Source of the DNA: Nanobdellota archaeon
GTDB taxonomy: Archaea; Nanobdellota; Nanobdellia; Woesearchaeales; WJIZ01
Assembly: GCA_023140175.1 (NCBI GenBank)
Contig: JAGLMD010000057.1
Location: forward strand, 1 to 51,144
Length of the DNA: 51,144 nucleotides
Direction: 5' to 3'
Below, piece by piece: positions 22,859-30,711 of this stretch (positions within the stretch are counted from its first letter, which is position 1; each line of letters begins with the position of its first letter). The notes beneath the pieces were generated by a model. The model saw only the letters and a list, made by a program, of their open reading frames with translations. It made no database searches and had not been told where the DNA came from. The translations under genes and the position numbers were made by a program.

Positions 22859-23003
22859 ATAATAAAATAATAATTTAGCTAATATATAAATGTTTTTTTA
22901 GCTTCAAGTTGATTTGAAGTAAGTATTAATGTCAGGTGGGGAAAATATTATTTCTATTAATCTCAAAAATGAAGTTTTTGACTAAATATCCCGAAGGGAT
23001 GGC

Positions 23004-29448: not shown

Positions 29449-29652
29449 AACAATTTTATATAGGGGCGTTTTAAATAACTTATGGAAATCTTTTCTTAAA
29501 AATAACATACCTCCAAAATCAATCCGATTAAAATAGGGGGTTTCTCACGCAGAACCACCAATACTAAATTTACAATTGTCCAAATGAATTAAAAGGACAA
29601 TTAAAGATAGGGGGTTTCACAAAGTGAAATCTTTAGAAGGGAGCGAGAAAAT

Positions 29653-30564
29653 TTATTTACATTTCTCATGTTTAATTTGCTTTTTCTTTTTAGTTAAATC
29701 GAGGTAGTTATCTTTTGAGATAATGGATTTGCCTGTTTTTTGCTCAATCTCTTCCCTAGTATTCTTTGCTATTGTGCCTCCTTCTTTTGCTGAAGTCTTA
29801 CACTCATTCAAACCATTTGAATCCTTTGAAATTGTAATGTCTGTTGTTGCTTTTTCTCCAACCATTGTCAAAATTAATTCCCAATCTGTCATATGATCTC
29901 TAAGATTTTGATTTTTTCGCTTTAAGCTTTTGAATCTCTTATACTCTTTAACTGTCTTGTCGAATGTGGCCTTCGAAACGCTCAGAAATTAAAAAATTTC
30001 TGGCGCACCAAAAACTTTGTTTTTGAGTGTCTCATTTGTGAGTATTGCAAATTCTTTTTCCTCTTGAATGCCTCTGCTTCCCCATTCATCAGTTAAATCC
30101 TGCCTTATCGCTATTCCCCGTAGTCTTTTGTCAATCCATTCTTTAGGATAGCCTTTAAGCTCATAATACTCTTTTACCCTGTCTTGGGCTAATTCAGGAT
30201 TTTCTATCTCATCAATTCTCTCTTTTCCTACCTGAGCAAGCCATTGCTTAAAAGGCTCTGCTTTCCTTGATGGTATTGACTGAATTATTCTGAACATAGA
30301 TTTGGTATTTGCACAGTCTGTAAGCCTTAATTTGCCATCAAGGGCAGGTAATTTCAACTGGTGACATTTTGTCACCGTTTCACTTCCTTCTTCTCTAAGC
30401 CTTTGATTTAGCTTATTCCAGTATTTTCTTGCTTTTTGGTAATCAGCCTGATCTGTTAGAACAGCAGCTATATCTATCACTGAGTAATGCCACTCTTCAT
30501 TATACCATATTCTCCTGATTTTCTTATCCTGAAAAACGATTAAGGATTTATTGTTTGATTTCAT
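29653..30564 (-). pseudogene. BRO-N domain protein interrupted by a 51-nt insert
   Basis: IRRIW..EEW.YSVID, RIIQSIPS.KAEPFKQWLA, then NLRDHMTD.ELI; both ORF halves are in the same frame, separated by one TAA inside the insert. Confidence 0.85.
29979..30029. mobile_element. 51-nt double-hairpin insertion
   Basis: Its removal restores ...LTNEISKATFDKTVKEY...; two internal hairpins. Confidence 0.65.
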
Positions 30565-30567
30565 TTT

Positions 30568-30711
30568 TTATCCAATGTTTTTATTTTTTAATTTTTCTTC
30601 CATCATTATTTCAAACTGACGAGATACTATTAAACCTTTATGTTTACAGTATTTTCTATACTTATCATATAATCTGGATTTGACTTTTAAGGTTACACTT
30701 TTACTTAACAT
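30568..30711 (-). CDS. 47-aa ribbon-helix-helix-like protein (not in ORF track)
   Basis: MLSKSVTLKVKSRLYDKYRKYCKHKGLIVSRQFEIMMEEKLKNKNIG; GGGGGTG SD; ends 3 nt before the BRO start. Confidence 0.7.
   Translation of the reverse strand: MLSKSVTLKVKSRLYDKYRKYCKHKGLIVSRQFEIMMEEKLKNKNIG

Follow-up and report, generated by a model that had tools for sequence, protein, structure and literature searches.

A 51-nt double hairpin interrupting an archaeal BRO gene apparently belongs to a widespread family of tiny mobile repeats

What is a 51-nt segment with a stop codon doing inside an otherwise continuous BRO gene? The segment lies on the minus strand of a 51,144-nt stretch of archaeal DNA (the window, which is contig C138 of a genome assembly of 2.07 Mb in 184 contigs, G000), and folds into two abutting hairpins, one of which contains an in-frame TAA. 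Read on the minus strand, the gene runs from AATGAGA into the insert, CACTCAAAAACAAAGTTTTTGGTG CGCCAGAAATTTTTTAATTTCTGAGCG, and resumes with TTTCGAAGGCC (with wider flanks, ACAAATGAGA / CACTCAAAAACAAAGTTTTTGGTG CGCCAGAAATTTTTTAATTTCTGAGCG / TTTCGAAGGCCACATTC), and the frame that opens with the ATG at 30564 meets the TAA at 29989-29991 after 191 aa (ORF 29989..30564). Exact removal of the insert yields a single 287-aa frame reading NEISKATF, and boundaries shifted by 1 or 2 nt give no continuous frame. The insert is the sole difference between empty and occupied BRO sites, with no target duplication. A preliminary description of this locus had reported a stop-bearing in-frame double hairpin interrupting a BRO gene, a continuous frame with no other lesion once the insert is removed and the absence of a target duplication, all of which agree with the sequence, fold and frame recovered here. 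It had also described the ends as an imperfect inverted repeat matching at 11/14 positions; the inverted repeat stands, with the count revised to 10/14. Coordinates of the features are collected in Table 1.

Table 1. Features of the interrupted BRO gene in the window and the inserts found at the same site in BRO genes
Feature	Position	Length	Strand	Carrier	Basis
BRO gene, part upstream of insert	30030..30564	178 codons + 1 base	-	window	Pfam Bro-N, E = 2.2e-10
BRO gene, part downstream of insert	29653..29978		-	window	same frame, no other lesion, normal stop
Double-hairpin element	29979..30029	51 nt	-	window	DNA and RNA folds, R1 scores, missing in paralogs and homologs
Hairpin 1: CAC-T-CAAAAAC / AAA / GTTTTTG-GTG	30006..30029		-	window	fold and unit scan
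Hairpin 2: CGC-CAGAAATT / TTTT / AATTTCTG-A-GCG	29979..30005		-	window	fold and unit scan
BRO insert C138		51 nt		G000 paralog (window)	
BRO insert C48b	contig C48, 200-257	58 nt		G000 paralog	
BRO insert C143		56 nt		G000 paralog	
BRO insert L066		58 nt		other genome	
BRO insert L093		54 nt		other genome	
BRO insert L124		58 nt		other genome	
BRO insert L165		58 nt		metagenome contig	
BRO insert L166		58 nt		metagenome contig	
BRO insert L179		52 nt		genome G080	

Both parts of the host gene are recognisable, as the upstream part is 81% identical to an insert-free homolog (L059) and the downstream part aligns to residues 177-270 of an intact paralog (C112). An intact BRO paralog showed a faint likeness to DinD, at 20.6 bits against a cut-off of 242. 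Ahead of the gene, a 47-aa ORF with no Pfam match (window 30568-30711, minus strand) ends 4 nt before the BRO start, and the two may form a two-gene unit.

The two-hairpin fold uses every base of the 51 nt. As DNA, the insert folds at -14.4 kcal/mol (z = -4.98), and as RNA with its flanks at -24.7 kcal/mol (z = -3.75), with none of 200 shuffles equally stable in either case. Hairpin 1 has a one-base bulge (or a T:G wobble) in its 5' arm. Hairpin 2 repeats a unit of the hairpin-1 type in inverted form, has a bulged A in its 3' arm and contains both the in-frame TAA and a T6 run; the unit scan accordingly picked it up on the plus strand, as CGCT-C-AGAAATT..GGCG. An Rfam search over 29600-30400 at E <= 10 returned chance-level matches only.

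The gene was aligned with intact homologs. Among about 13 BRO-like loci in G000, ten cover the insertion site, and seven of these are uninterrupted there with the reading ..ILT[NA]EI[ST]K.. (C112, C126a, C146, C65, C126b, C100a and C125, the last broken otherwise). Uninterrupted paralogs read ..ILT[NA]EISKATFG.. without the extra 17 codons, and 69 of 80 homologous loci from other genomes gave one unbroken match across the site. In a set of 40 relatives, 28 loci align across it, the exceptions being one later frame shift and one cut by a contig end. A simple nonsense mutation in 17 native codons is refuted, because homologs do not have these codons. A related suggestion is that ribosomes hop over the segment, as in T4 gene 60 or the mitochondrial byps, and the window insert is indeed in frame and a multiple of three in length. 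Seven of the nine BRO inserts in Table 1 are not multiples of three, and ribosome hopping needs matching take-off and landing codons, which were found in 0/9: the codon before the resumed TCN or AGT is RTH, formed partly by the insert, and no matching ATH or GTH precedes the insert. Taken together, native codons or hopping are a highly improbable explanation of the segment.

The insert is one copy of a dispersed family. The first further double hairpins in G000 were found by BLAST and a structural scan, and sixteen double-hairpin copies were aligned (A1), with a covariance model (R1) built from the family. On the two-helix structure, 91.9% of the cells of A1 pair, compared to 78.2% in shuffles, and 17/25 pairs are changed on both sides; 0/500 shuffles reach the observed values. 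Pairing reaches 98.9% in helix 1, where 6/12 pairs are changed on both sides, and 84.4% in helix 2, where 11/13 are. Each unit has the form YRCT-N-stem-loop-stem-GGYR, starting with YRCT and finishing with GGYR, and the whole element is two-fold symmetric, with the bulge on the 5' side of the first hairpin's stem and on the 3' side of the second's. Matching this symmetry, both strands of the copies score with R1 (62.6 bits on the minus strand and 58.5 bits on the plus strand for the window copy).

The number of copies in G000 comes to at least 45 R1 matches counting both strands, or at least 22 distinct places, at E <= 0.01, a lower bound since 150 of 1843 candidates were scored. Across the order, R1 matches 61 of 101 sampled genomes at E <= 1e-5; in a phylum-level sample it matches 14 of 101 genomes at E <= 1e-8, with one match outside the order. 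The copies in G000 are mostly intergenic and some are clustered. When the copies at 22 places were removed in silico, a long frame crossed the junction only at the BRO copies and two others, one of which lies between two separate genes. Within the window itself, R1 run with filters off over the whole stretch found the BRO insert as the sole family member. A resemblance of hairpin 1 to a sequence near 22962, proposed in the preliminary description, was not upheld: 17/19 bases agree, with a BLAST E of 15, R1 missed the hairpin in that same scan, and the likeness is treated as chance. Rfam returned nothing relevant on twelve other family loci, and both DNA patterns gave 0 matches in viral_contigs.

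Several copies outside the BRO site have settings of their own. In genome G041 (L149, L151, L154-L157 and L163) there is a second recurrent site, with the element between TTTGCAACG and TTYGGTTAACTTGTATCC..TGTCCGCC; the site sits inside a repeated unit, of which an empty copy lies just upstream in L149 and L151, and the number of hairpins varies from 2 to 5. Copies from three genomes of different families (L168, L172 and L173, from G102, G019 and G077) have a common left flank, ..TTCTTGATG, two of them also with a common right flank, TATCGCAT..., and each lies just downstream of an ORF stop codon. The copy at C183:12297-12352 (L189) has a DUF7557 gene (E = 3.1e-6) on one side and a PemK/MazF-type toxin gene (E = 9.2e-9) on the other, inside a likely toxin-antitoxin operon. 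Exact removal of the copy at C81:968-1018 (L188) gives a 169-aa frame, the upstream part of which weakly matches the first half of HEPN (E = 0.027), and this may be another interrupted gene. A copy scoring 35.1 bits (L029:2294-2347, genome G012) overlaps the 5' end of a BRO gene.

At the BRO site, nine inserts lie at the same nucleotide, in the same phase and in the same orientation, in three paralogs of G000, four other genomes and two metagenome contigs (the metagenome scan gave three loci, the third being L066). The base in question falls between A and TH of the Ile codon in ILTxE-I-SKATFG, or GAR A^TH TCN, and exact removal restores the reading frame in 9/9 carriers. The six carriers then known were included in a maximum-likelihood tree of 116 BRO N-terminal sequences, on which they are scattered, so that six separate gains are needed, all six forced by starred branches. 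Some nearest relatives are insert-free, namely L059 for the window gene and L032 for L093 (91% identity). One ancient insertion is ruled out by this scatter. Four carriers have nearly identical 58-nt stems with flanks that differ up to the junction (TTTC, TATC, TTAG), so the insert was not copied in with flanking DNA, which rules out spread by gene conversion with the flanks. BRO genes are also hit outside the hot spot, as a second insert in C48 (315-369) lies between LTD and EW. A further BRO gene (L050, G031:C5:500-1900) is interrupted around residue 130 by some 120 nt that R1 does not recognise as a family element.

The carrier genes themselves are in varied condition. Both halves are intact in C138, C143, L165 and L166, and, measured against outgroups, C138 and C143 show no greater divergence downstream of the insert than their insert-free sisters do. 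Three of the nine host genes are degenerate otherwise (C48, L066 and L124): L066 and L124 have lost their C-terminal parts, and C48:1-840 (L019) is a BRO pseudogene in which TGA stands where a Trp codon is conserved, 1 nt is deleted and two double hairpins are inserted, both of which keep perfect stems despite the dead gene. L093 runs off its contig and L179 is known from 352 nt. Recent gene-killing insertions would leave such a pattern, and so would genes that are still functional.

In an intron-like reading, the two hairpins together with a 4-bp pairing of the exons (GARA:UUUC) would form a three-way junction from which the element is exactly excised, with ligation by, for example, RtcB so that the full BRO protein is recovered, and the element would home into the ILTxEISKATFG site. 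RNA folding indeed predicts a three-way junction, free of bulges, with a helix of 4 bp between the exons. Although insert length varies from 51 to 58 nt, taking the insert out exactly recovers the frame in each of the nine carriers. The nine inserts all point the same way, four of the carriers have both halves intact, and the downstream halves of C138 and C143 show no excess divergence. G000 encodes EndA (PF01974, C113:23327-23587, 97.3 bits) and has many intron-bearing tRNAs; by ARAGORN with its intron option, most listed tRNAs of this genome are intron-bearing (no rRNA was found in the same assembly). EndA and these tRNAs mark G000 as archaeal. The covariation in both helices, beyond anything in the 500 shuffles, also speaks for this reading; a fold selected in RNA could produce it, which is a point against the mobile-element reading.

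The bulge-helix-bulge (BHB) motif, in which a 4-bp helix lies between two 3-nt bulges that contain the splice sites and further helices flank these, was rejected by canonical and relaxed scans of eight inserts, in which the central 4-bp helix is fully paired in one, the outer helix reaches at most 4/5 and the inner at most 2/5, and the relaxed scan is empty in three (C138, C143 and L124). The tiny intron offered in the preliminary description thus finds no backing from the fold check. Other observations also speak against an intron: the same element is mostly intergenic, its symmetry is at the DNA level and not needed by an RNA signal, T5-T6 runs lie in the sense strand, the hairpins are still perfect in the dead C48 gene, and insert and gene are not inherited together. 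Copies with identical stems can have their loops inverted (AAA/TTT, TAT/ATA), which points to template switching in DNA as the origin of the apparently compensatory changes. An intron-like element is, on balance, quite unlikely.

The insertion sites of the family give a picture of what the element enters. In total, 63 insertion sites were tallied, or 45 when recurrent sites are counted once; in these 45, position -1 is a purine in 43, position -3 a purine in 43, position +1 a T in 28 and position +3 a pyrimidine in 38. Of the 44 non-BRO sites, 21 have A^T at the junction, compared to 10.9% AT dinucleotides genome-wide. The resulting consensus, RANR^TNYY, is weakly palindromic, which suits a symmetric element, and is much too weak and common to account for nine insertions at one base. 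R1 with filters off gave no family-like hairpin at the empty site in 20 uninterrupted BRO loci, a weak test that leaves target mimicry by the empty site unsupported.

The absence of a target duplication also bears on a reversible DNA switch, in which precise single-stranded excision of the kind performed on IS200/IS605-type elements by Y1 HUH transposases would turn BRO off (occupied) or on (empty). Precise excision would restore the gene, bulged hairpins stand at both ends of the element, insertion always adjoins a purine-rich tetranucleotide in one orientation, and the presence or absence of the insert differs between close relatives. G000 has five matches to Y1_Tnp (the IS200-type transposase), the own ends of which carry different hairpins, unrelated to those of the family. 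In IS200/IS605 elements such as IS608, the end hairpins have the same orientation, unlike the mutually inverted hairpins here. Y1 was found in 24/60 family-positive and 10/40 family-negative genomes, a weak association in which kin are not independent, and Y1_Tnp was not found in 36/60 family-positive genomes, including one closed single-contig genome with 11 family matches. The Y1 transposase was set aside as the mover on these counts, and a reversible switch appears rather improbable. IS200-like elements with conserved left and right ends were located at C37:1-600, C155:14100-14706 and C169:1-560, two of them broken by the ends of their contigs; a family copy (C37:605-657) follows one of them at a distance of about 100 nt, outside the IS end. 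The unit scan of G000 found no longer element with the same ends and no distant unit pairs flanking an ORF, and no RAYT-like gene flanked by repeats was found.

Elements of the intron and switch readings can be joined in a homing-type mini-element, a 51-58-nt ORF-less intron or switch that would recognise one conserved coding site, be removed exactly from RNA (by a non-BHB route) or from DNA, leave its carriers usable and spread between distant BRO genes. We consider this unlikely as well. Splicing or DNA excision is unsupported rather than refuted by the present evidence.

The explanation that we favour, and judge to be probable, is a non-autonomous DNA element of REP/BIME-like type that strongly prefers one hot spot for insertion and truncates the BRO gene. 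Each member of the family comprises two short imperfect palindromes in inverted orientation, and most lie between genes in small-genome archaea (DPANN, Woesearchaeota-like); these non-autonomous DNA repeats would be moved at the DNA level by an enzyme acting in trans. Insertion would occur without target duplication between a purine and T (RANR^TNYY), and in BRO genes it would be concentrated at one hot spot, GAR A^TH TCN, within the ILTxE-ISKATFG coding motif. In the window gene, translation would halt at the TAA in hairpin 2, leaving a predicted 191-aa protein that retains the Bro-N domain, and archaeal transcription probably ends at the hairpins' T5 and T6 runs as well. The miniature palindromic mobile element put forward in the preliminary description is supported by the dispersed family, by its presence in 61/101 genomes and by its polyphyletic occurrence in BRO genes.

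The two-hairpin repeat occurs in about 60% of the genomes sampled from one large archaeal order, and it has entered one particular nucleotide of a gene family at least nine times independently. The biology of REP/REPIN-type repeats is known from work on bacteria, and literature searches listed no account of a comparable family from DPANN archaea; the 51 nt apparently belong to a widespread and undescribed family of tiny mobile repeats. For a 51-58-nt element with no ORF, that degree of site choice would require an enzyme that acts in trans and recognises a sequence or a structure, and such an enzyme would be of interest to mobile-DNA biology. In annotation, a gene with such an insert is wrongly called as two ORFs, and the insert may be taken for an intron. 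Were the element removed from RNA or DNA, it would represent a new kind of archaeal gene interruption.

Finally, the family can be set beside known systems. Tiny palindromic selfish DNA that enters protein genes is represented by the Rickettsia palindromic elements (RPEs) and the fungal mitochondrial double-hairpin elements, of which the RPEs are longer than the archaeal element and are read through in frame. Palindrome-associated elements derived from IS200/IS605 (PATEs) have hairpin ends, no classical terminal inverted repeats, no target duplication and oriented insertion adjoining a short target. The archaeal family is like PATEs in its hairpin ends, its lack of classical terminal inverted repeats and of target duplication, and its oriented insertion; it differs in that its hairpins abut the ends and are mutually inverted, with no guide segments evident and no matching autonomous IS in G000. 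Unlike a MITE, it makes no target-site duplication and has no autonomous partner with the same ends in the unit scan of G000.

Archaeal BHB introns, such as that of cbf5 (PMC2738675), resemble the window insert in being short inserts in a protein gene whose exact removal restores the frame, with EndA present; unlike them, the archaeal inserts have no BHB, are not inherited with the gene and belong to a sequence family that is mostly intergenic. The closest match is to the bacterial REP/BIME/REPIN elements. Common to both are short imperfect palindromes with a bulge or mismatch, arranged in inverted pairs with little or no spacer (bacterial REP dimers lie 1-5 bp apart), and many copies that are mostly extragenic, form clusters of variable number and occasionally sit in genes (PMC3733652). 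The differences are the archaeal host, the YRCT...GGYR ends in place of the GTAG or CGTC tag, and the absence of a detected RAYT-like gene flanked by repeats; RAYT classes are reported for bacteria alone, and for Archaea the Y1 proteins reported are of the IS200 type only (PMC6006769). Intragenic REPs of bacteria are reported to be translated in frame (PMC3733652), whereas the archaeal inserts carry stops or shift the frame, and the strong single-site hot spot is a feature of the archaeal family and not a REP trait. Without a GTAG/CGTC tag, a flanked RAYT or a target duplication, the family is not filed as REPIN or MITE, though it works like one.
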